DNA of 64,000 bases from an uncultured Gammaproteobacteria bacterium (GCA_942491945.1 CALODD010000037.1:67500-131499); one strand, 5' to 3'; counted from the stretch's first letter, positions 3,158 through 53,469 are shown. Numbers and translations: made by a program. The notes: generated by a model not told the origin, from the sequence alone.

Positions 3158-3233
3158 TGGTGGCCAGGGACAGAATCGAACTGCCGACACGGGGATTTTC
3201 AGTCCCCTGCTCTACCGACTGAGCTACCTGGCC
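3158..3233 (-). tRNA. tRNA-Phe (GAA)
   Basis: The reverse complement reads ggccaggtagctcagtcggtagagcaggggactgaaaatccccgtgtcggcagttcgattctgtccctggccacca. It has a cloverleaf, a GAA anticodon and a terminal CCA. Confidence 0.92.
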
Positions 3234-16458: not shown

Positions 16459-17849
16459 GACATCAACTCCGACCTGAAATCCTCATACTTGCCTGCGGCG
16501 CTGCGCGGTACGTCAGAAACCTGATTTACCTTAATCGTCATTCCCGGCAAGTCCTGTTCAAACATTCTCTGGAGCTGCATCTGCTCAGTATTTGTCAGCT
16601 CTCGTGTACAAACAAGATCAGCACGAACAAGATCGTATTGCTGCTGCACAATTTGAAATTGTTTCACTGGTGCAATACCACGCAGCCGAGGTTCATTAAT
16701 CAAAGGCCAGAATGACGTACCATCTTCTCGGAGAAATATATTCCTGTATCGACCCATGATTTTGTTGAGTACTTTTAGACCACGTCCACAGGAACATGGT
16801 GTATGCCCAACTTCAGCCAGATCACCGATTTCATAACGTATTAATGGCATAGAAAAATTATGTAGATCTGTTACCACGACTTTACCCGTTTCGCCCGGTG
16901 CGCAAGGCTGGCCTTGCTCGTTCAATACTTCCATAAACACATCTTCTTCCATAATATGATAATGACTATGTTCCGGACACTGGAGTGCCAGATAGCCAAC
17001 TTCCCCACAACTATAGCCATCGACTAAATCCATACCAAGCACTTGCCTCGACAGTTCCCTCAAACCCTCAGGAATCTGTTCACTAAACGTCATGACCTGT
17101 TTTAACTTAGGTGCGTTATTATTTTCCTGCCAGTAATAAAGCAAGGTTTTTAGATTAGAGGGGTAGGTCAGTAAGTAATCAATAGATTCCGCTTTAATCC
17201 ACTCTGTCTGATGCGCGACATCGGCATAAATACTCAAGCTGGCAGCTTCGCCCGTCACGAATACTCGAGCTGCCGCTTCCCCCCAACGATCATGACTGTA
17301 CGCCGTCGGATGATCGCCATCATGAAAATCCGTATAGCGAATTGCACCAAATTTTGCATGCAAATCCCGCTCATGCCATAGATGACCTCGCAAGGTCATG
17401 GCTTGCCAGAACATATCGGTTAACTGGTTTTTTATAGAATAGACCGGCATCCCGGTTGAACCAGAGCTATGACTGAAAATTGATAGACCATGCTGGCGAG
17501 ATGGGAAAGCACTTAGCAGTTCTTTCTGATGGTGTTGTAGCTGTTCTCGAGTCAGAACAGGTAACTGCAACCAACGGTCCATTGATAGTGGAAAATTAAA
17601 ACTTAGATTCAGCTCTCGATAATGCTGCTGATAAAAAGGTACTGTATCTACTGCGTGTTCCAGCAGGTGTTCAAGCTGAAATAATTGCAACGTCTGTATT
17701 TCACTGGCTGACAACCATTGGCTTTTTTCGAGTTGATATTGCACCGAAGCCATCGCATTCGCCTGATCACTCTGCTGCACGGGCCAGACGATACCTGGGA
17801 CATGTAACTCATCACTTCGAAACGTATGATTCAAATCAGGCAACCGCAC
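16455..17849 (-). CDS. PaaK/CapK/F390-synthetase-like adenylate-forming enzyme (paralog 1)
   Basis: SSGSTGMPV P-loop and YSCGEVGY. The C-terminus GKYEDFRSEL is shared with the paralogs. Overlaps the next gene by 14 nt. Confidence 0.65.
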   Translation of the reverse strand: MRLPDLNHTFRSDELHVPGIVWPVQQSDQANAMASVQYQLEKSQWLSASEIQTLQLFQLEHLLEHAVDTVPFYQQHYRELNLSFNFPLSMDRWLQLPVLTREQLQHHQKELLSAFPSRQHGLSIFSHSSGSTGMPVYSIKNQLTDMFWQAMTLRGHLWHERDLHAKFGAIRYTDFHDGDHPTAYSHDRWGEAAARVFVTGEAASLSIYADVAHQTEWIKAESIDYLLTYPSNLKTLLYYWQENNNAPKLKQVMTFSEQIPEGLRELSRQVLGMDLVDGYSCGEVGYLALQCPEHSHYHIMEEDVFMEVLNEQGQPCAPGETGKVVVTDLHNFSMPLIRYEIGDLAEVGHTPCSCGRGLKVLNKIMGRYRNIFLREDGTSFWPLINEPRLRGIAPVKQFQIVQQQYDLVRADLVCTRELTNTEQMQLQRMFEQDLPGMTIKVNQVSDVPRSAAGKYEDFRSELMS

Positions 17850-19407
17850 TCGACTTTCTTATAAATTCAATCGGTACACCATCCATATACTCGGGAACAG
17901 GCTGCCCCATCAAATCGAGCAGTGTTGCAGTCAGATTGATCGCATGTGTTTCAGGCAGGCGCTGGCCTTGCGGAATGGACTGACCGGAAAACAGGGCAAA
18001 GCCATACGGACGATGTCCACCCGTTCTGAAGTAAGGCACTGGGCCAATCAGACCGGCATTTTCATCACGCACACTATCGAAAGGCTGTTGGTCATTCCAT
18101 TGCACGATTAAATCGGCATCTGGTAACCCAGATTGACCAAGCTGCTTGCTAGTTCTGGTTCGAACAATATTTTTAACAACTGACTGTCCTGAACGACCAT
18201 CCTTCAGCTGCGACACTTGTGAAGCAAGCTGATCACAATAGTCATCGTACTGTTCTGCTGAAATCATGCCATCGCGCTCACGCCCTTCAAGATTGATTCG
18301 TATGTACCCATCGGAATAACTCGGTAAGGCAAATGCCGACATCTGAGACCAGACCGTTCGATACCAGTTCGCTGGCATCCAGTCGAGCAGATCCTGACGA
18401 GCAATCTGCTCATCCGGTGATTCAAGTTTGTGGCCCGCCTTGTCAGACAATCGCCGCCACATCTCATATTTCCAGTGCAGCGGGAAGTTATAATCCAGCC
18501 CATCCTGATAAAATTTATCGGGGTCACCCAACGCCATTTCGCCGGGGAATGCCCAGCGATACATCGACTCAGGTAACAGCAACATGCTTGAGACATCCAT
18601 CACATTCGCCTGCATGCCATGAATAGAAAATACTGCGATGGTTGTCGAGTCATCGGCATCATCCATCAACTTACCGATCAGTTCATCACTGCGGATATAA
18701 ATATCCCTGACCCCCTGCTCACTCTCATCAGAATCATTCAATGGGTAATCCAGCCCCAGATGCCAGAGCGAGTGCCCTGCAGGGTGTGTTTCACCAATCG
18801 CACATAGAAACAAATCCCAGTCATCACTCTGGTAAGTTTCCATGAAGAGTTGTTCACGCATATCCAGCCCCTGCATGAACTCCTGCTTTAATACCGCCAG
18901 TTCCTCTCGGTCATAGCAGTTACGATGATCCCGCATCAAGGTCGGATGACAGCCAATCCGTTCACGAACATCGGCCAGCCAGTCGGCTGGTATCGACTCA
19001 CTGGGTGCCTGTGGTGAATGCGCACCCCAGCCAATCAATTGCTTTCCATTGACATCAACATGTGGACGACTATGCGGCATATCCATCACAGCCACTTTGG
19101 CTTTGTCACCCAGGGCATAAAACGGTGCGATATCTTTAAAATCATTCGCACCGGATTCAGTTGCTGTATATGTCTCAGGATCATAGGTCAGCATGCCCCA
19201 GTAACCACTGGTTTCCGGTAGACAACCAGTCAGAAAGTTAGTCCAGGGCGTTTCTGATTGGTAGATTTCCATATTACGCAAGGGTACGTAACTACCCTGC
19301 TCAGCTAATCGGGAAAGATTCGGCAGATAACCATCGGTCATCCAACGCTCAACTAACAGCGAATCTGCCGCATCAATCGCAATCGCTAGTAAACGGGATT
19401 TCCTCAT
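17836..19407 (-). CDS. Type I phosphodiesterase/nucleotide pyrophosphatase (alkaline-phosphatase superfamily) protein
   Basis: The N-terminus AIDAADSLLVERWMTDGYLPNLSRL and SETPWTNFLTG (putative Thr nucleophile) resemble the NPP/AlkP core. It is coupled by 4-nt and 14-nt overlaps to the flanking PaaK-like genes. Confidence 0.55.
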   Translation of the reverse strand: MRKSRLLAIAIDAADSLLVERWMTDGYLPNLSRLAEQGSYVPLRNMEIYQSETPWTNFLTGCLPETSGYWGMLTYDPETYTATESGANDFKDIAPFYALGDKAKVAVMDMPHSRPHVDVNGKQLIGWGAHSPQAPSESIPADWLADVRERIGCHPTLMRDHRNCYDREELAVLKQEFMQGLDMREQLFMETYQSDDWDLFLCAIGETHPAGHSLWHLGLDYPLNDSDESEQGVRDIYIRSDELIGKLMDDADDSTTIAVFSIHGMQANVMDVSSMLLLPESMYRWAFPGEMALGDPDKFYQDGLDYNFPLHWKYEMWRRLSDKAGHKLESPDEQIARQDLLDWMPANWYRTVWSQMSAFALPSYSDGYIRINLEGRERDGMISAEQYDDYCDQLASQVSQLKDGRSGQSVVKNIVRTRTSKQLGQSGLPDADLIVQWNDQQPFDSVRDENAGLIGPVPYFRTGGHRPYGFALFSGQSIPQGQRLPETHAINLTATLLDLMGQPVPEYMDGVPIEFIRKSSAVA

Positions 19408-40727: not shown

Positions 40728-41847
40728 ATGCCGTTTCTTTCTGCCTACTCGGCACAACCAGATTGGGAACAGGCTGTTGACGAGTGTATAGCGCAAATCG
40801 CTGAACAAGCCCAGGGCATGACCCTGGGCTTTGTTTATGCATCAGATAGTTTTTCTCACCTTCTGCAGCCTATCATTGAGAAACTAAGCAATTCGACACA
40901 GCTACAGGACTGGATTGGCACAGTCGGACTCGGCATCTGCCATGGACGAGAAGAGGTTTATGAGCAGCCAGCTCTATCTCTCCTTATCACCGATATAGAC
41001 CCGGATAATTATCGATTGATCGAAGGGCTGGATAACCAACTAGAAAATTTACATAAACATCAGGCATGGTATGCCGACAACTTCGCCACCGTAGGCATCC
41101 TGCATGCAGACCCCTTTAACCAGTCCCTGCCTGAGATGTTAAATGAAATTTCCGAAACTGTTCCTGAAGGGTTTCTGGTTGGCGGGCTCTCATCATCGCG
41201 CCAGGATAACCCACAAATCATTGGGCAAGCACTCAGTGAAGGCAGCGTATCTGGAGCACTATTTTCAGAGAATGTGCCTGTAGCGACCGCTATCACTCAG
41301 GGGATGCTCACCTATCGCTCCCAAACGAACCATCACAGAATCACAACGTAACGTTATTATTTCAATCGATAACCGACCAGCGCTGGATGTCATGAAAGAA
41401 GACATCGGCGAAGATCTGTTAAAAAATCCAGATGAACTCGGCAGCACCATCTTTGTTGGTTTCCCTGTCAGCGGCTCCGACACTGGTGATTACCTGGTTA
41501 GAAATCTGATGGGCATCGATGAGAACTCGAATGTGATTGCCGTTGGTGAAATGGTCGAAGAAGGTCGTAGCATGATGTTCTGTCGACGCGATCGAGACAC
41601 TGCTCATGAAGACATGCATCGTATGCTGAGTAATTTACAGAAACGCATTGGTCATCAGCCCCCGAAAGGCGCTATTTATTATTCCTGCCTGGGTCGAGGC
41701 CGCTCACTATTCGGTCGCGACTCTGTTGAACTCAATATGATCCAGGATACGCTTGGCGATATCCCTCTCACCGGTTTTTTCTGCAATGGAGAAATCGCCC
41801 ACAACCAGCTCTATGGATTTACTGGCGTACTCACTGTATTTTTGTAG
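40728..41847 (+). pseudogene. FIST (N+C) domain sensor protein, interrupted by a +1 frameshift in a G4 run at 41300-41303
   Basis: FIST_N in frame 0 up to 41351. The +1 frame continues from ~41284 (..RGCSPIAPKRTITESQRNVIISIDNRPALDV..) into FIST_C. Confidence 0.6.
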
Positions 41848-44433: not shown

Positions 44434-44493
44434 GATGGTGCCCGGGGCCGGAATCGAACCGGCACGAGGTTGCCCTCGAGGGATTTTAAGTCC
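44434..44493. repeat. attL-type direct repeat: duplicated 3' ~58-60 nt of tRNA-Leu (anticodon loop through CCA)
   Basis: Identical to 50587-50646 (atggtgcccggggccggaatcgaaccggcacgaggttgccctcgagggattttaagtcc). Confidence 0.9.
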
Positions 44494-44612
44494 ATTAAGT
44501 TGCACCACAGTGATGCACATACTACTACACAAATCAGGAGGTTATATTCTGGGGCTACTCACTGAAACACTGTGTTTCACAATAAATGTGGACAATTTGT
44601 GGCCATCTTTGG

Positions 44613-45440
44613 CTAGTTGATTTGCTGCTCACCAAATGCAGACGGATCGTAGCTTAGAACATCTACATGTCTATTGATTAACGAGGATAGATCTAGATTA
44701 TCAAAGAGTGCATATTTCTCAGCTAAAGGCTTGAAATTTATTCCGTGCTCTGAATTACCATTGTAGAAGAGCATTGCTAACTCAGGGTTGGATAGCTGAG
44801 CCCTGAAAATGCCCGTGTACTCTTTTTTGTTAGCTACATTACTCTCATCGATAAATTTCATAATTCTGTAAATAAATCGAAAATAATGAGCCAGATCTGA
44901 ATTGTATTTCTGGAATGCCGCCTCATAAGAGCTTGAGATACGTTCATTGTACGCTATGTCGCCATTTTGACCCGCAAAGTGATTCCTTAGGAACTTATAA
45001 ATAAATGCAATTGAGTCCCTTCCAGCCTCTATAGTGCTGCCTCCGCCCTTTTTACGCATATCAATATCTTTAACTATCTCGTGATGCAGCGAAAACATAC
45101 TAAAAAGCCGATTTTCAAAATTCTGTAGTTCTAGAGCTTCACTTTGCTTGTTTAAAGCGACAGCTGAGTTTTCTAACTCTCTTGATGAATTCCTTAACTC
45201 GATTGTTTGAAGCTTAAGAGTTAACAGCAGTGCTATTAATGCCAGAAATGCATACGAAGCGCCTAATACACCACCGATATAATCACCAAAAGCTCCCCAA
45301 TCAGAGGATTTTTCTGAAAGGTCGGAGTTAAAGAAATGAGTAATGTAAAAAGTTAGAGCTATAACAGTAATTATCCAAGCCAGATTGGCAATAAATAATA
45401 TTGGAGGGCCGTCATTTTTCTTACTAGTAGATGCCTGCAT
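44613..45440 (-). CDS. Membrane protein, possible abortive-infection (Abi)-like protein
   Basis: Two to three N-terminal TM helices followed by a helical cytoplasmic domain. Island location. Confidence 0.35.
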   Translation of the reverse strand: MQASTSKKNDGPPILFIANLAWIITVIALTFYITHFFNSDLSEKSSDWGAFGDYIGGVLGASYAFLALIALLLTLKLQTIELRNSSRELENSAVALNKQSEALELQNFENRLFSMFSLHHEIVKDIDMRKKGGGSTIEAGRDSIAFIYKFLRNHFAGQNGDIAYNERISSSYEAAFQKYNSDLAHYFRFIYRIMKFIDESNVANKKEYTGIFRAQLSNPELAMLFYNGNSEHGINFKPLAEKYALFDNLDLSSLINRHVDVLSYDPSAFGEQQIN

Positions 45441-45455
45441 AAAGTAATTTGCCCT

Positions 45456-45677
45456 CTAAACTAGAGTTAGATTTGCTGTAGAGTGGGAGCTTCGCACCCG
45501 ATCTAATTCAGCATTGATACTTTTGAGCTCTTTATTGAGATATTTAATCACATTTCCTACATCAATCGCAGAAGCATCGTCATTACATGAAAGTATATAG
45601 AGGCTATCAAATGCATCTACCAGCTCATCATGACGATCTGAAATTCGTAATAAACTATGTTGAATCGTTCCTTTCAA
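45456..45677 (-). CDS. Small hypothetical protein (73 aa), possible toxin partner of the upstream RHH gene
   Basis: Overlaps the RHH gene stop by 23 nt. Confidence 0.3.
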   Translation of the reverse strand: MKGTIQHSLLRISDRHDELVDAFDSLYILSCNDDASAIDVGNVIKYLNKELKSINAELDRVRSSHSTANLTLV

Positions 45678-45849
45678 AGTAATCCAGCAAAATAACTCGT
45701 ATCAAGGAGCTGACAGACCTGTGGTCTTTCTCAGCCATTTGTTTAAGTTTCTCAGCTTCATCCTCATCTAGCTGGATCGAAACTGTACGCTTACGTGGAG
45801 CTTTACCTGGCCCCCGCTGTCCTCTTTTCTTTTTAGCTATATCTGGCAT
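45655..45849 (-). CDS. Ribbon-helix-helix (CopG/Arc family) DNA-binding protein
   Basis: KRTVSIQLDEDEAEKLKQMAEKDHRSVSSLIRVIL RHH signature. Confidence 0.5.
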   Translation of the reverse strand: MPDIAKKKRGQRGPGKAPRKRTVSIQLDEDEAEKLKQMAEKDHRSVSSLIRVILLDYFERNDST

Positions 45850-45955
45850 TTATTTTAAATAACTTTTATTTACTGTCAATATCTTTTTTAAATAACTTTC
45901 AATAATTCTGCTTAGTATTAAAGAAATATTCAAGTGTTCTTAATAGAACGAGGCA

Positions 45956-46384
45956 CTACTCTACTTCAGTTGATATGTATTTCTTTACGGCAAGGCGAAT
46001 AACTGAGCTTAAAGTTCTATCATCTCTCTCTGCAATTAATCTAAGTGCGTCCAGGTCTGATCTATCGATCTGTATCGAGGTGGCCACCTTCGATGGATTT
46101 TTACCTGGTCCACGTGTTCGTTTCTGCACCGGTTCGTTGATCGGATCAGCCTGTTCCGTACTTCTAGGTTGATTCCCATCTTCAGCCGGAACGGGATTTA
46201 GGGCTTTGTATCTAATTGGGTCTTTAATGCGGCCATCTACTACTCCTGCATCATAGACTTCTCTAGCCTTTTCTTTAGATGCCTTACTGAGAAATGCTTT
46301 AGCTCTAGTTGCAGACATACCATCTGCCTTCATTGCCTCTATAAGCCTTTTCCGTTCATTTGTAGTTAATTTATTACTTATCAT
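45956..46384 (-). CDS. RHH-domain protein with N-terminal extension (paralog of 45655-45849)
   Basis: The C-terminal ATSIQIDRSDLDALRLIAERDDRTLSSVIRLAV aligns to the neighbouring RHH protein. Confidence 0.5.
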   Translation of the reverse strand: MISNKLTTNERKRLIEAMKADGMSATRAKAFLSKASKEKAREVYDAGVVDGRIKDPIRYKALNPVPAEDGNQPRSTEQADPINEPVQKRTRGPGKNPSKVATSIQIDRSDLDALRLIAERDDRTLSSVIRLAVKKYISTEVE

Positions 46385-46522
46385 CCATGAAATTTAGCTT
46401 ATTCCGACTTTATGTCAATATGTTTTGGTATCTATTGGTATATTTTTACACTCCTTAGATTTGGTCATTTGTTTATTTTGGGATTGATTCTTGTCCTCTA
46501 TGTAAAAACCTTACATGTAACA

Positions 46523-46590
46523 GTGTGGTTTACTGTGCTGGTATGGAAGTTTTAGTCCCCTTTTTTAAGACGTGTTACAGGCACGTCTTA
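46523..46590. repeat. Inverted copy of the 68-bp hairpin-containing module found upstream of rep at 448-514
   Basis: Near-identical sequence. Lies ~130 bp upstream of the RHH gene start. Confidence 0.75.
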
Positions 46591-46820
46591 ATGGCAGTGC
46601 TGTGCTCCATGGCCTACCTGCAGTACGCCACCGCGCACAGCACTCCTATCAATTCCCGTAGTTTTTTATATTTATCTGATCGTTTATGGTCTATTACTTC
46701 GAATAAACAACATTCAAGTGGAATCAACATACCCACCCTTTGTCCACAGCTCTGGCTCTAAAGGAGCGAGCCGCTGTGGACAAAGCATGGATATGTTGAG
46801 GTGAGATCAAGGAAGGATTT

Positions 46821-47813
46821 ATGGGGCTACAAAAGCTAGAGGATGGCTGGAAATTAGATATTCGTCCTGGCGGTCGCTATGGAAAGCGCATCAGAAGGAC
46901 ATTCAAAACGAAAAAAGATGCTCAGAGGTTTGAGGCTTGGGCGAAGACACAGGCCACCCAGAAAGAAGACTGGGAACCTCCTGTGCGAGATCCCAGACGA
47001 TTAAAAGACCTGGTGAAAGAGTGGTATGGCCATCATGGAAAAACCCTGAAGGACGGCAAGAACAGAAAGAAGAAGCTCGACACAATCGCAAACCATTTAG
47101 ACAATCCTTTGGCCAGAGACATAAAGGCAGAAGTCTTCACTAAGTATCGCTCTCAGAGACTGGATGGCGGTGTCAGCGCAAATACTATGAATCATGAGCT
47201 TGCCTACCTGAAGGCCATGTTTAACGAACTGAGACGGATTGGGAAATGGGACAAACCTAACCCTTTGGCGAATACGAGGATGCTGAAGTTCGATGAGAAG
47301 GAAATGACTTTCCTCGATGGAAACGAAATTAAAATGCTCCTGGATGAACTCAAGAATCGACGATCATTGGACGCTTACTACATTACTCGGATCTGTTTGG
47401 AGACTGGTGCCAGGTGGTCAGAGGCCGAGACATTAAGAGCTGAGAGTGTTCATCCTGACCGGATTGTTTATTCGGGAACCAAGAGTGGAAAGACCAGGAC
47501 TGTACCGATTAACAAGGAACTACATGACCTGGTTAAACTGAAAGATCGGGGAAGATTATTTAAGCCTTCCTATGAATCATTTAAAGTGTCGATCGACAAT
47601 TTAGATATTGAATTACCTAAAGGTCAGATGACACATGTATTGAGGCACACATTTGCCAGTCATTTCATTATGAACGGTGGGAATATTTTAACCTTGCAAA
47701 AAACGTTAGGCCATTCAACACTTATGATGACAATGAAGTATGCTCATTTAGCACCAAATCATTTAGAAGAAGTGAAAACCTTGAATCCTATTCGTAAAAC
47801 CACGACCAGTTAA
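46821..47813 (+). CDS. Tyrosine recombinase / phage-type integrase (intact)
   Basis: 330 aa. ARWSEAETLRAE, HVLRHTFASHFIMNGGNILTLQKTLGHS and YAHL (catalytic R, H-x-x-R, Y). Confidence 0.88.
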   Translation: MGLQKLEDGWKLDIRPGGRYGKRIRRTFKTKKDAQRFEAWAKTQATQKEDWEPPVRDPRRLKDLVKEWYGHHGKTLKDGKNRKKKLDTIANHLDNPLARDIKAEVFTKYRSQRLDGGVSANTMNHELAYLKAMFNELRRIGKWDKPNPLANTRMLKFDEKEMTFLDGNEIKMLLDELKNRRSLDAYYITRICLETGARWSEAETLRAESVHPDRIVYSGTKSGKTRTVPINKELHDLVKLKDRGRLFKPSYESFKVSIDNLDIELPKGQMTHVLRHTFASHFIMNGGNILTLQKTLGHSTLMMTMKYAHLAPNHLEEVKTLNPIRKTTTS

Positions 47814-48682
47814 GTCTGATCGTTGAGCACACTACTTCTTACAAGATCTTTGATACGCTTCTTAAGTGTAAGGTTCTTCTTATGCATAAACTTTTTCAAA
47901 ACAGTTTTTTGCTTTCGTTGCTCTCGAGTTAACCCGGAGTCAGACTCATGGCAAAACAAGGCTTCTTCTAACAATATCTGAAGATTTAACAATAAAAGGT
48001 TAGTAATACCGTAAAACTGTATGCACTGACGTTCGACATCATGATCTAATAATTCTTTATTTTTTGTTGGTGCCGAATATATATCATAAACACCCAATTC
48101 AAACATGCAACCATACAGAGTTCCATGCAGTGCCTCAGAAGCATCCTCATACAAATACGAAAGATATGGAGACAAGGAAACATTATATTTCTGCTCAACG
48201 ACTTTCGAGCGAGCATCAATACTAGACTTAGTCCACCTAGGAACTTCACGACCATTGACACTAGTAAACTTTGAAACAGCATCCTGCAATTCATCAGGAA
48301 GGCTTTCATGCCAACCATCTTCGGAGAGTTTCAATCTAACTTTACCCTTAACAATAATCTTTCTATCGTATTTCCTAACACCCTTGTTTTTAGAATAGTC
48401 AACAAAATTATCTAGCTCTGATTTATCGCTAGCATACAGATAACCGATATTAACGACCTTTTCCAATATTGATCGGCCCACCATGTATGCCTGGCTTAGG
48501 AGCTGCGCCTTTAGTAGCAAATCAACAGCCTTACAGTCGAGTGATATCATTCTCCATAGAGGGGCAGTATATGTGGATTGTTCGACATTCATTGAAAACA
48601 AACCGATTGATATGCGTTCGCATAAATCAGACAGCTCACTCAATTGCTGAGAAAGATCAGTGATACTATTGCTTTCACTCAC
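47810..48682 (-). CDS. Hypothetical protein (290 aa), island cargo
   Basis: Long ORF with no recognised domain. Confidence 0.4.
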   Translation of the reverse strand: MSESNSITDLSQQLSELSDLCERISIGLFSMNVEQSTYTAPLWRMISLDCKAVDLLLKAQLLSQAYMVGRSILEKVVNIGYLYASDKSELDNFVDYSKNKGVRKYDRKIIVKGKVRLKLSEDGWHESLPDELQDAVSKFTSVNGREVPRWTKSSIDARSKVVEQKYNVSLSPYLSYLYEDASEALHGTLYGCMFELGVYDIYSAPTKNKELLDHDVERQCIQFYGITNLLLLNLQILLEEALFCHESDSGLTREQRKQKTVLKKFMHKKNLTLKKRIKDLVRSSVLNDQT

Positions 48683-48764
48683 AAGAAATAAGAATAAGAA
48701 AGTCAGTTATCGAACGACATAATAAGTCGAATCAATTCAAGACTTATAGACATTTAAATTACAA

Positions 48765-49280
48765 TCAAACATCTGCATCAGCTTCTCTATCCTCCCTTTT
48801 ACTATGAAGATCGTTAATAAACATAATATTACTGTAGATAACGTAAAACACCGACTGTATTTGAAGCAATCCTAGAATAATGACGAATGCTAGCGTCAAA
48901 TACTTAGCATGAAAGACATACCCTTCGTTGATTAATAGTACACCGAAAACCACCTTCAACAGGTACAAGACCATAATTGCAGTAACGACAAATGCAGAAA
49001 TCAACACACTACCAACCAATCCCTCTAATCTTTTAGTCTCAGTCAAAGTTTCACTGAAATCAGCATTTTCTATTGTAGAGGGGTTAACTAAACGACTAAG
49101 TGCATTAGGGTACAAAAATGCTATCCAGATACCCATTATTGTAAAAACCATAGTTGAGGCTGTCAGCAAGGCTGTCAGATAATCTTTTAAGTCAGAGTAT
49201 TCGTAATCCATCTCTAAATAATGGAAAACTGAAAGCAGCAGAAAGAATATAGCCACATATACTAATAAGCGAGGCACCAT
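48765..49280 (-). CDS. Four-TM small membrane protein, island cargo
   Basis: Four hydrophobic helices. Its start abuts the stop of the upstream 351-aa gene. Confidence 0.45.
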   Translation of the reverse strand: MVPRLLVYVAIFFLLLSVFHYLEMDYEYSDLKDYLTALLTASTMVFTIMGIWIAFLYPNALSRLVNPSTIENADFSETLTETKRLEGLVGSVLISAFVVTAIMVLYLLKVVFGVLLINEGYVFHAKYLTLAFVIILGLLQIQSVFYVIYSNIMFINDLHSKREDREADADV

Positions 49281-49281
49281 C

Positions 49282-50337
49282 TTATGCTCTCATCTGTTTC
49301 TTTACTGTATCTTTCTTCAAAGGCTTTAAGAGATTTCCGCGCTCTTTATCGATTGCATCTGCAAGCTGAATGGCATTTAACAGAACATCTTTTCTTTCAG
49401 GAACTACGATGCTGTCTCTTAACCTATATCGATCAACCCATCTTATGCCTGTGTCTGTAGTAAAGCCTACGTTATCCCAATCATGGGGCTTCCTCCCTTC
49501 TATAGCACTTTTCTCTATTATCTCTTTAATCTCTTTAACACTAGGCTTTGCTTCAGCTTTTACCTCTATCCTTCTACTTCTAGACCTTGGTTTTGGCGAT
49601 AGATACGGAATATAGTCATCAAACTTTTTAACCCATTCGGCTCTTTCATCGTTAGTATTAACTAACACAGTCTCTCTCCTAACAATGTGAGTAACTTTAT
49701 TTGCCAGTTCCTGCAGTTTACTGCTAGATGTCTTAAGGCTCATTAAACTCATTTTAAAGCGATACATAAATAGAGTTTTATCATCTTCTGTATGAGATAT
49801 CCGAACAAAGCCTTTCTCAGTATGTTGTTTTTTTCGTTTTGGGTTGTCGACACGATTATTTATGCACGAAATAACATAATCTTCAAAAAGTTGAGCATCA
49901 GTTACAGAATGATCAAATTTTATGGACGCAATAGAATTATATTCAGGAATTACCCAGTAGTAACATGGCCTACCCCAAATGACTTTTTTTCCATCATAGT
50001 CATTTGTATATTTGACATAAGTCCCATTTCCAGTTTTATTTTCTTCTTCTGCCCCCCATATTGTACCTGCGCCATCTGAATCAGACTTCCAAAGAACAAA
50101 AAAATAGTCCCCAGTGTCCTCATTTTTATACACATCGCTACAATAGCATTTAGGCATATTGCGCTTAGCGTTCAACGGATCCCAGGGCAGGGTCGCTGGT
50201 AATTTTCGACCTTTAAGCCACCCCATGATGAGCGAAAACGTCTCGTCTACCTCATATCCATGGGTTTTATCTGACCCAACTTTATGAAGTCCACAGTGAT
50301 CAATCTTAAAAAAGTTAATATGACCTACGTCTGACAT
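49282..50337 (-). CDS. Hypothetical cytoplasmic protein (351 aa), first gene of a two-gene cassette
   Basis: Long low-GC ORF with no recognised domain. Confidence 0.45.
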   Translation of the reverse strand: MSDVGHINFFKIDHCGLHKVGSDKTHGYEVDETFSLIMGWLKGRKLPATLPWDPLNAKRNMPKCYCSDVYKNEDTGDYFFVLWKSDSDGAGTIWGAEEENKTGNGTYVKYTNDYDGKKVIWGRPCYYWVIPEYNSIASIKFDHSVTDAQLFEDYVISCINNRVDNPKRKKQHTEKGFVRISHTEDDKTLFMYRFKMSLMSLKTSSSKLQELANKVTHIVRRETVLVNTNDERAEWVKKFDDYIPYLSPKPRSRSRRIEVKAEAKPSVKEIKEIIEKSAIEGRKPHDWDNVGFTTDTGIRWVDRYRLRDSIVVPERKDVLLNAIQLADAIDKERGNLLKPLKKDTVKKQMRA

Positions 50338-50588
50338 ATCTACTCCTTAACGCCTGAAAATGAAGGTGTACTATCTTACTATTAATATCAGAATAAGACA
50401 TAAGAATATAGCGCGAACGCCTCACGCTGCATAACTTGTAGACAGCTCACTCTCGTTAGAGAGTTGAAATAGCTGAATAGCATTCAGTAATCACCTCATT
50501 CGAATAACGAGAAGGTTAGCATGTGGACAATATGTGGACGATTAAGAATGGAGCCACACTTCACTAGAACGTAACTCATTGATTTGAA

Positions 50589-50675
50589 TGGTGCCCGGGG
50601 CCGGAATCGAACCGGCACGAGGTTGCCCTCGAGGGATTTTAAGTCCCTTGCGTCTACCAATTTCACCACCCGGGC
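50589..50675 (-). tRNA. tRNA-Leu (UAA)
   Basis: The reverse complement reads gcccgggtggtgaaattggtagacgcaagggacttaaaatccctcgagggcaacctcgtgccggttcgattccggccccgggcacca. Long variable arm and TAA anticodon. Confidence 0.92.
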
Positions 50676-50849: not shown

Positions 50850-50870
50850 AGGATTGCATTGTCATTATAA

Positions 50871-50899
50871 TAAAAAACCCCGGCTTAACCGGGGTTTTG
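50871..50899. other. GC hairpin (aaccccgg..ccggggtt) flanked by A- and T-runs, between tRNA-Gly and tRNA-Cys
   Basis: Perfect 8-bp stem. Could be a terminator/attenuator or a processing site. Confidence 0.5.
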
Positions 50900-50904
50900 A
50901 AATC

Positions 50905-50980
50905 TGGAGCGGGAAACGAGATTCGAACTCGCGACCCCAACCTTGGCAAGGTTGTGCTCTACCAACTGAGCTATTCCCGC
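50905..50980 (-). tRNA. tRNA-Gly (GCC)
   Basis: The reverse complement reads gcgggaatagctcagttggtagagcacaaccttgccaaggttggggtcgcgagttcgaatctcgtttcccgctcca. Confidence 0.92.
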
Positions 50981-51581: not shown

Positions 51582-53469
51582 TAATGTGAGTGCAGATGCT
51601 CGTAAATTTTTCGTGCCAGTGACTGACTGATGCCTTTTATTTGTTGCAAGTCTTCGATACCGGCCCGTTTTATACCATGAATGCCACCCAAAGTACTTGA
51701 TCAAGGGCCTGTCGCCGTTTTGGCACCAATCCCGGGATTTGCTTCCAACGACCGAAGTGCGGCGGTTTATCGCGCCGCTGTTTATGGCCGGTAACGGCAA
51801 AACGATGAGCCTCATCCCGTATCTGCTGTAATAAGTGCAGTGCGGGATGTTGGCTATCCAGTACTTTTTCATGCCAACCATTTTTCTCTACACCTTGTTT
51901 ATCAACTGATGGCAATATCAAGGTTTCAAAACCCGCTTTACGCGTACTACCTTTAGCAATACCCAGTAATCTAATATCTTGTAACTGTAAACTTTCCAAC
52001 ACTTCTTTTGCTTGTGTTAACTGCCCTTTTCCACCATCGATCAACAAAATATCCGGCAACTTTCCCTCTTCCTCCTGCACACGAGTATATCGCCTCTCTA
52101 AAGCTTGCTTCATGGCGGCATAATCATCAGCGGCTGTGATATCAGCAATATTAAAACGACGATAATCAGACTTCACAGCACCCTGATCATTAAACACCAC
52201 ACAGGAGGCAACCGTTGCTTCCCCTGAGCTATGACTGATATCAAAACATTCCATGCGCTGCGGCAGTTCATCAAGTGACAGTGCCTCCTGCAGGGTTCGC
52301 AAACGCTGTTGCAAACTATTGCGCGAACTCAGGTAGGTATGCGAACGCCTCCTGAGCATTATGTCAGCGCAATCTGCACCCATCGTGCACGGTCACTGCG
52401 TACTTTATTCTTTATAGCGACCTTGCGAGCCGGCCTGCCTGCTCAAGGCTAAACTCATCAATGAGCGCGTCTGTCTTCCAGGTGATGACTCACCACCAGC
52501 TCCGGCGGTATCTCATGTGCCAGGTAATACTGTGGCATAAAAGCCTCGAGCACTTCGGCTGCGTGATTCCATGACGCGTATCGCGGATAAAAAACCTTGT
52601 TACCCTGCATATTCCGCCGCGATACGAAGACCAGCACGCAGGCCTGCCCGCCCGGTATCGCGCAGGCCACTACATCAGTAGAGACATCCTGTTTGCCCAC
52701 TGACATACTGTTTTTCCTGTATCTGCCTGCAGATGGCCACCTGGTCGCGGAATAACGCCGCCTGTTCAAACTCCAGCTGTTCAGAGGCCCGCTCCATTTT
52801 GGCAACCAGATCATCAATGATCTGAGCCGTCTTACCCTTTAGGAATAATCGTGTGTGTTCTATATCACGCGCATATTCTTCTTTTGATATCAGGCCAACA
52901 CAGGGGCCACTACAACGCTTGATCTGGTATTGCAGACAAGGGCGACTACGATTTTTGAAATAGCTATCTGTACATTGACGTAGTCGAAAGATCTTGTGCA
53001 GTAGATGAATCGATTGCCGCACCGCTCCGGAACTTGGAAATGGCCCGAAGAATGTCCCCTTACGTGATTTCGTTGTGCCACGATAAAGCGATAACCGAGG
53101 AAAATCGTTCTGTGTACTAAGGTAGATATAGGGGTAAGTTTTGTCATCTCTGAGTAGAACGTTATAGCGAGGCAGGTATTTCTTGATCAGTGTATCTTCA
53201 AGTAATAGCGCTTCACTCTCTGTATGTGTGACTGTGGTTTCTATAGAAGCTATCTGGCCGACCAGTGCCAGTGTTTTACTGTTATGGGCCTTATTGAAAT
53301 AACTGCTGACACGTTTTTTTAAATGACGTGCCTTACCAACGTAAATGACCTCTCCAGCAGCATTCAACATTCGATAGACACCCGGCCCGGTAGAAACAGT
53401 GGCCAGGAATTCACGATGGTCAAAGATGCCATCTTCAACTTTATCGTCGGTTATCGATGCGTCATCCAT
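51581..53469 (-). pseudogene. uvrC: Excinuclease ABC subunit C (uvrC), disrupted by at least four +1 frameshifts
   Basis: The GIY-YIG N-terminus, the UvrBC-interaction and RNaseH-like middle, and the (HhH)2 C-terminus (..[32 protein letters not shown]) are all present but spread over four reading frames. Two shifts map to a CCC run and a GGG run near 51700-51760. Confidence 0.8.

Follow-up and report, generated by a model that had tools for sequence, protein, structure and literature searches.

The window analysed in this work is a 64,000-nt stretch of DNA from an uncultured Gammaproteobacteria bacterium (GCA_942491945.1, CALODD010000037.1:67500-131499), and the element in question is a genomic island of 6.15 kb, inserted in a tRNA-Leu gene at positions 44,434 to 50,675 (coordinates refer to the window unless a contig is named). 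Our analysis indicated that this island is probably an integrative element of the HP1/P2 type that carries three independent candidate modules of abortive infection or phage exclusion, i.e., the two-gene unit PDC-M18, a membrane protein of the putAbiC family, and a protein of the DUF5677 family, and we lean to the view that this cargo is defensive. A first-pass annotation, made from the sequence alone, had described the cargo as entirely unknown, with none of its proteins assigned to a family, and this had to be revised: Pfam putAbiC (PF16872), Pfam DUF5677 (PF18928), and the PADLOC models PDC-M18A and PDC-M18B all match. Islands that reside in tRNA genes and combine an integrase with defence-type cargo are already known, all cargo families found here are catalogued in Pfam or PADLOC, and little in the island is conceptually new. 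The contributions of this work are a link, based on predicted structure, between PDC-M18 and the fold of lambda RexA, the strict linkage of the two PDC-M18 genes across 43 loci, and the evidence that an integration module of the HP1 type, targeting tRNA-Leu(UAA), can be maintained in a 6-kb element that carries three candidate exclusion genes.

Borders of the island and its empty site

ARAGORN placed a tRNA-Leu(taa) gene at the right end of the island, followed by tRNA-Cys and tRNA-Gly genes, and the tRNA-Leu gene scored 55.5 bits with the Rfam tRNA model. A repeat search then yielded a direct repeat of 62 nt with a single mismatch at position 60, and thus 59 nt of perfect identity, that reaches from the anticodon loop of tRNA-Leu to one base beyond its 3' end and is not explicable by chance (cf. 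Table 1). The GC content between the repeats was 0.391, as compared with 0.468 in the left and 0.471 in the right flank. Both features, a tRNA-Leu island bordered by direct repeats and its low GC content, had been claimed in the first-pass annotation and were confirmed. The presence or absence of the island in relatives could be followed as well. In a relative's contig (L005), a homologue of the left-flank gene coding for a 78-amino-acid (aa) helix-turn-helix (HTH) protein lies about 300 nt from an uninterrupted 3' part of tRNA-Leu. The latter includes 19 nt (GAAATTGGTAGACGCAAGG) located 5' of the repeat boundary, which the window contains at the true tRNA and nowhere else. Because the tRNA-Leu part, including GAAATTGGTAGACGCAAGG, joins the flank with the HTH gene without interruption, we concluded that L005 carries an empty site, a comparison that covers one relative of a different species. 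The locus is therefore, as indicated by its border repeats, its internal integrase and the empty site in a relative, a genuine tRNA-integrated integrase island.

All eight open reading frames (ORFs) of the island are intact, and nearby host genes are in fragments. The uvrC gene (51670-53469, minus strand), located beyond the tRNA cluster and pgsA, was found as three ORFs in different frames (GIY-YIG plus UVR, UvrC_RNaseH, and UvrC_RNaseH_dom), a split that needs at least two frameshifts and reflects either a pseudogene or an assembly error. Similarly, a FIST-domain gene (40728-41847, plus strand) was found as two ORFs, FIST N and FIST_C; L005 has a single gene of 371 aa. A further potential island target, a tRNA-Phe gene, is present elsewhere in the window (3158-3233, minus strand).

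Part of the island was sighted a second time. A contig of 2,227 nt from an independent sequencing run (L032) is the same as window positions 46963-49192 except for one in-frame deletion of 3 nt, and this second sighting may simply come from the same organism. The deletion removes one Ser codon within the DUF5677 gene. A search of the phage collection for near-identical DNA returned only a tRNA-sized match. The island proteins were singletons at 90% identity in the protein collection; nine host housekeeping proteins were also singletons or members of tiny clusters at this identity level among 15 billion proteins, and therefore the isolation of the island proteins reflects a poorly sampled host and not an unusual island. 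The Rfam scan of the island revealed the three tRNAs, one sub-threshold Trp_leader match, and nothing else. We regarded the Trp_leader match (50870-50970, minus strand; 28 bits, the gathering score being 41), which overlaps tRNA-Gly, as spurious.

An integration module of the HP1 type

The tyrosine integrase had been called intact in the first-pass annotation, and this was upheld by its full-length alignment with HP1 Int (50% identity), in which the catalytic residues are conserved; in a three-way alignment, R198, H272, R275, H298, and Y307 were invariant. Using tblastn, we found the protein to be 47-51% identical to the integrases of the Haemophilus phages HP1, HP2, and S2 and of coliphage 186, and the same range covered the integrases of P2-like phages of Aeromonas, Yersinia, and Pasteurella. 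The annotated attP of HP1 (U24159, 251-694) holds the same tRNA-Leu(UAA) segment, CTTAAAATCCCTCG...GGGCACCA, as the tRNA-proximal attachment (att) repeat of the island. Since the integrase family, the target gene and the crossover segment are all shared with HP1, it follows that the island uses the HP1 solution. The choice of tRNA-Leu(UAA) as a target is thus conserved between a Haemophilus phage and the distant host of the island.

A motif of 16 nt (TGTGGACAATWTGTGG) is present in exactly two copies in the 64-kb window, both on the same strand and each just inside one end of the island, and two copies arose in none of 100 shuffles. Judging from their position and copy number, these motifs are possibly arm-type sites of the integrase. 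In this view the integration module comprises the integrase, the att site in tRNA-Leu(UAA), the probable arm sites, and two ribbon-helix-helix (RHH) proteins with their presumed divergent regulatory region. Searches in four family libraries recognised no excisionase, replication, cos/pac or mobilisation genes among the island proteins.

These data bear on how the island persists. The 59-nt perfect att repeats, the intact integrase and the paired arm-like motifs at both ends would be expected of an autonomous mini-element that is still mobile, a satellite-like carrier of a defence cassette and not a deletion remnant, which moves by excision and packaging by a helper phage or by transformation. 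The second sighting, identical over 2,227 nt except for the 3-nt deletion, and the empty site in L005 fit this scheme as well. We nevertheless consider it unlikely, given that none of the genes for excision, replication, packaging or mobilisation was recognised and that L032 may represent the same organism; the host lineage is, moreover, too poorly sampled to assess spread.

The PDC-M18 pair

One cargo module consists of a 351-aa protein and a 171-aa protein encoded directly downstream in the same orientation. The PADLOC model PDC-M18A matched the former over residues 6-338 (E-value 3.3e-37) and PDC-M18B (PDLC04500) matched the latter over residues 7-168 (3.3e-15). The PADLOC search thus succeeded for this pair, which belongs to the candidate class of that database, and gave only weak and partial AbiP and AbiC matches elsewhere in the cargo (see below). 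In PHROGs, phrog_24371 and phrog_37654 matched the pair, the latter hitting M18B with an E-value of 7e-19; Pfam and NCBIfam gave no match for either protein. The stop codon of M18A and the start codon of M18B are separated by 1 nt (TAA-G-ATG), so that the two genes appear to be translationally coupled, and hydropathy analysis revealed four hydrophobic segments in M18B, comparable with lambda RexB. This agrees with the first-pass annotation, which had described a coupled pair with a four-transmembrane (4-TM) second member.

The pair has a documented relative. According to Table 2 of the Domainator paper (PMC11754643), PDC-M18 corresponds to system 4 of the P4 hotspot described by Rousset et al. 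2022, whose Table S2 lists it as plasmid pFR81, 'RexA + 4TM', with two proteins from E. coli IAI75. In comparison with the pFR81 proteins, the island proteins showed 27% identity for A (E 2e-43, full length) and 36% for B (E 6e-25).

A word-indexed search for PDC-M18 returned 212 matches, all labelled 'hypothetical', from Pseudoalteromonas, Marinobacter, Endozoicomonas, Pseudomonas, Serratia, Yersinia, Pantoea, and several Betaproteobacteria. An exhaustive profile search of 1.84 billion representatives (50% identity clusters) extended the family to 562 clusters at E ≤ 1e-3 and 411 at E ≤ 1e-10. In all 26 loci from bacterial genomes in which the A gene is complete and the DNA continues downstream (24 from a GTDB scan, plus L002 and L003), the gene immediately after A coded for a B homologue; this was also true of all 17 viral contigs from IMG/VR, which amounts to 43 of 43. 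No homologues of DUF5677, putAbiC or either RHH protein were found within 10 kb of M18AB in the other loci, and therefore PDC-M18 is a self-contained two-gene unit. Accordingly, the idea that DUF5677 is a third PDC-M18 subunit, or that a larger conserved multi-gene system exists, was rejected for want of such co-occurrence.

In Serratia, a P4-like satellite ends with the pair, which follows the primase and Ogr/Delta genes. In Pseudoalteromonas rubra S1946 (L006), M18A and M18B come after host genes; three variable genes separate them from a convergent integrase of the P2 type (43% identity), beyond which lie small ORFs and P2 GPA. This arrangement suggests that marine P2-like phages have a slot for cargo on the side of int that faces att. 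It is mainly because the P. rubra P2-like prophage has this same slot that we interpret the island as a P2/HP1-like element in reduced form; most likely, it is a drastically reduced prophage of this kind, or a mini-element derived from one. The prophage genes considered here lie within positions 10001-19080 of L006, with the GPA replication protein at 17053-19080, and the slot also holds a DUF6731 protein and a small TM protein.

Independent structure prediction and comparison linked the PADLOC candidate to the fold of lambda RexA. As modelled, M18A has the two-domain fold of RexA, and hydropathy and gene order show M18B to be a small 4-TM partner encoded directly downstream.

The putAbiC gene and the RHH operon

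The first-pass annotation had proposed an Abi-like membrane protein, and this was borne out by family matches: the 275-aa product has two N-terminal hydrophobic segments and matched Pfam putAbiC with an E-value of 2.2e-23 (83 bits against a cut-off of 22) and phrog_8999 over nearly its full length (2.8e-41). The PADLOC models AbiP (4.9e-8) and AbiC (1e-6) also hit the protein, weakly and with partial model coverage. Homologues are labelled by NCBI as 'putative phage abortive infection protein'. Four homologue contexts were examined, and the gene was found at the end of a P4-like satellite in Vibrio, beside an EcoRI methylase and GmrSD/HNH in Natronospira, among unannotated neighbours in Halomonas, and in an integrase island in Microbulbifer.

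Two RHH genes precede putAbiC in the same orientation and form one string with it; a gap of 436 bp separates this string from the divergent int. Of the two RHH regulators claimed earlier, RHH64 was readily verified (Pfam RHH_1, 7.7e-9); RHH142 reached only 0.0025, which is below the cut-off, but it is visibly a paralogue of RHH64, since a DNA repeat (D9) links the two genes in addition to RHH_1. These proteins presumably regulate their own operon and perhaps int or excision too. Near-consensus sigma-70-like promoters are present on the minus strand at 45852-45879 and 46391-46418 (11 and 10 of 12 positions, respectively), and they end 3-7 nt before the RHH start codons. Promoters so close to the starts imply either leaderless transcripts or miscalled start codons; the lambda cI transcript from PRM is leaderless. 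As to the small overlapped ORF noted in the first-pass annotation, a TTG-start ORF of 73 aa is indeed present, and nothing supports its status as a gene: it had no family match in the four libraries and was a singleton in the protein collection.

The company of RHH proteins raises the question of addiction. The cargo might be a set of toxin-antitoxin-like modules that stabilise the island, with RHH64 acting as the antitoxin for the 73-aa ORF or the putAbiC protein and M18A neutralising a toxic M18B. In favour of this, RHH64 weakly matches the RelB, CopG, FitA, and BrnA antitoxin families, membrane proteins and small overlapping ORFs are common toxin formats, and A and B are apparently coupled in translation. 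However, the antitoxin-family matches are all below curated cut-offs and generic to the RHH fold, the 73-aa ORF lacks homologues, and no recognisable toxin partner was found beside the RHH gene. RHH as a conserved partner of putAbiC was also rejected, as it was absent from all four homologue contexts. We thus regard addiction as quite improbable, with the reservation that toxin-antitoxin and abortive-infection readings can both hold.

The DUF5677 gene

The 290-aa protein, previously considered an orphan, turned out to match Pfam DUF5677 with an E-value of 4e-10 (40.4 bits against a cut-off of 27.1). We retrieved 26 homologues, all but one of which contain PF18928, and their alignment revealed an invariant Y-x-DASEALHGT-x-YG block together with R70, E74, and a TRW motif. 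The invariant acidic and histidine motif suggests that the protein may be an enzyme or hold a metal site. The HEPN superfamily, marked by an R-x(4-6)-H catalytic motif and a four-helix fold, was considered as a possible affiliation. In Paraburkholderia sediminicola (L033, 4830-8840), a DUF5677 gene starts 50 nt after a serine recombinase (resolvase) gene and adjoins a reverse transcriptase (RVT_1) gene with two small ORFs, within a P4-like element with AlpA and a DUF927 primase. Serine recombinases have been put forward as defence markers in a preprint in which DUF5677 is enriched (PMC12632615), and the resolvase-DUF5677 arrangement of P. sediminicola fits this idea. Together with the contexts described above, these findings show that the three modules are separately mobile, each recurring alone in satellite, prophage or defence-island contexts elsewhere.

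Weighing of a defensive role

The first-pass annotation had considered the locus a candidate anti-phage defence island. This is supported by the contexts of the cargo families, i.e., ends of P4-like satellites, ends of prophages and proximity of restriction genes, and by the RexA-like predicted fold of M18A, evidence that amounts to association. Within 3.5 kb of M18AB in 23 genomes, we found six integrases, two MmeI-type IIG enzymes, two PD-T4-6 kinases, two MkoA, two DrmMI, and type IV restriction endonucleases, and these counts, made without a background control, are suggestive of a defence context.

If the three modules are defensive, their modes of action could be envisaged as follows. By analogy with the established Rex model, M18A would sense a cue of infection, probably phage DNA or a protein-DNA intermediate, and would then open or activate its co-translated 4-TM partner M18B, which would collapse the membrane potential and abort the infection. 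The putAbiC protein, whose gene is the last of the RHH operon, would act on the membrane as an Abi protein, potentially toxic and held in check by the RHH repressors. DUF5677 would represent a third, stand-alone exclusion module.

Several observations, beside the missing background control, weigh against this reading. Our literature search found a demonstrated anti-phage phenotype for none of the island's cargo families. Plasmid pFR81 was challenged with eight coliphages and appears in sheet S2B, 'additional tested systems', off the validated list (Rousset et al. 2022), and for PDC-M18 we found nothing beyond the Domainator table. One DUF5677 ORF was tested in Enterococcus and was outside the five active ORFs (PMC12632615). 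At the sequence level, no link to Rex was found. In BLASTP, M18A matched RexA with an E-value of 0.075 and M18B matched RexB with 4, and hhalign gave RexA a probability of 0.4% with a 51-sequence profile and of 0.2% with a 65-sequence profile that included distant members; the value for RexB was 0.1% with the 26-sequence M18B profile. Pfam RexA (PF15969) was unmatched at E ≤ 1 by the window protein, the pFR81 protein and ten distant family members, and RexB (PF15968) was likewise unmatched by the window proteins, pFR81 and these ten members; both models do match the lambda proteins themselves. A sequence search of the PDB for a Rex link was negative, and Foldseek of M18A against the PDB returned nothing below an E-value of 0.059. 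Sequence kinship of PDC-M18 with lambda RexA/RexB was therefore rejected. Lastly, RexA plays a role in the lysis-lysogeny switch of lambda that does not depend on RexB (PMC11077077), and because of this a RexA fold alone does not imply defence.

The same role of RexA lends weight to the view that the island is an inert prophage remnant, the cargo of which serves a phage lifestyle, present or former, and not host defence. M18A would then bias a lysis-lysogeny switch, as RexA does independently of RexB, and M18B, putAbiC and DUF5677 would be leftover morons or superinfection-exclusion genes without present function. That M18AB likewise adjoins int in a real P2-like prophage and that tests of the homologues, pFR81 and the DUF5677 ORF, gave no validation accord with this; the broken-looking uvrC and FIST genes next to the island suggest a genome that tolerates decay. 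On the other hand, all eight island ORFs stayed intact though nearby host genes are fragmented, M18AB is paired in every one of the 43 loci, many of which have no prophage switch genes nearby, and it also occurs in P4-type satellites, which are regulated differently. Such a remnant is, in our judgement, rather unlikely, and the reading of the island as a carrier of candidate exclusion modules is preferred.

Within that preferred reading, a bolder version can be formulated, namely that PDC-M18 is a branch of Rex no longer recognisable by sequence, in which a DNA sensor of the RexA/RdgC fold gates a new 4-TM effector, and that the island is a minimal, still-mobile vehicle of the HP1 type carrying it along with two single-gene exclusion functions. 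We put this forward tentatively, as a possibility that is more doubtful than probable. If PDC-M18 were a Rex branch, Rex-like abortive infection would be far commoner than the lambda-centred view suggests, and the compact island would be a convenient test construct. It is small enough to be cloned whole, and its three families have so far yielded negative or no experimental data.

Table 1 Features of the tRNA-Leu island and its borders
Feature	Position	Strand	Basis or remark
Distal att repeat, 3' half of tRNA-Leu in a displaced copy, perfect over 59 nt	44435..44496	-	Repeat search; L005 has no insertion here
TGTGGACAATTTGTGG motif, putative arm-type site of the integrase	44587..44602	+	91 nt inside the distal repeat
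putAbiC-family membrane protein, 275 aa, predicted two N-terminal TM segments and cytoplasmic putAbiC domain	44613..45440	-	
TTG-start ORF, 73 aa, doubtful gene	45456..45677	-	Overlaps RHH64 by 23 nt
RHH64, 64-aa CopG/Arc-type RHH protein	45655..45849	-	Pfam RHH_1 7.7e-9; PHROG Arc-like repressor 4.5e-7
RHH142, 142 aa, C-terminal RHH domain	45956..46384	-	Pfam RHH_1 0.0025, below cut-off
Divergent int/RHH intergenic region, 436 bp, presumed regulatory switch	46385..46820	.	ORF map; promoter-like TTGACA-16-TAAATT at 46418-46391(-)
HP1/P2-family tyrosine integrase, 330 aa	46821..47813	+	Pfam Int_N 1.5e-37, Phage_integrase 1e-19
DUF5677 protein, 290 aa, all-alpha, stand-alone cargo gene	47810..48682	-	Convergent with int, ORFs overlap by 4 nt
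PDC-M18B, 171 aa, four hydrophobic segments, presumed membrane effector	48765..49280	-	PADLOC PDLC04500, phrog_37654, pFR81, hydropathy
PDC-M18A, 351 aa, soluble, RexA-like predicted fold, presumed sensor	49282..50337	-	
TGTGGACAATATGTGG motif, putative arm-type site of the integrase	50522..50537	+	51 nt inside the tRNA-proximal repeat
tRNA-proximal att repeat, anticodon loop to 3' end of tRNA-Leu	50588..50649	-	Repeat search; segment also in HP1 attP
tRNA-Leu (anticodon UAA), integration target	50589..50675	-	3' 58 nt restored by island DNA

Comparison with known systems

The integration module resembles that of phage HP1 in its integrase, which is 50% identical and has the same domain set and catalytic residues, and in its target, the tRNA-Leu(UAA) segment between the anticodon loop and the 3' end, of which HP1 attP holds a copy. 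The two differ in layout: attP abuts int in HP1, whereas the island has 2.8 kb of cargo between int and the tRNA-proximal att, and the RHH proteins occupy the place of HP1 orf1-4 and cI. In contrast to HP1, P2, and 186, the island has no cI/cox, replication or structural genes.

With lactococcal AbiC/AbiP, the putAbiC protein shares a strong putAbiC domain match and a membrane-anchored architecture. It differs from them in that the PADLOC AbiC/AbiP models match it weakly and partially and in belonging to a proteobacterial clade, of which we found no tested member.

The closest counterpart of the M18 pair is PDC-M18 as represented by pFR81, in which the same two protein families occur in the same order on an integrase-bearing mobile element. 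However, the E. coli pair resides in the P4 psu-int hotspot and the island pair in a tRNA-Leu island of the HP1/P2 type, their sequences are distant, and the family is still a candidate only.

Lambda RexAB is another system to compare. M18A has 351 aa compared with 279 in RexA, and M18B 171 aa compared with 144 in RexB; M18AB is located outside any cI-rex operon, has no known exclusion phenotype and shows no detectable sequence homology to RexA or RexB. By analogy, M18AB may work like RexAB, yet sequence tests do not place it in that family. What the two have in common is that they are borne by prophages and that a small 4-TM protein follows directly after the first gene, and on these grounds RexAB is the likely mechanistic analogue of M18AB, with a sensor that would open a membrane channel and thereby abort the infection.

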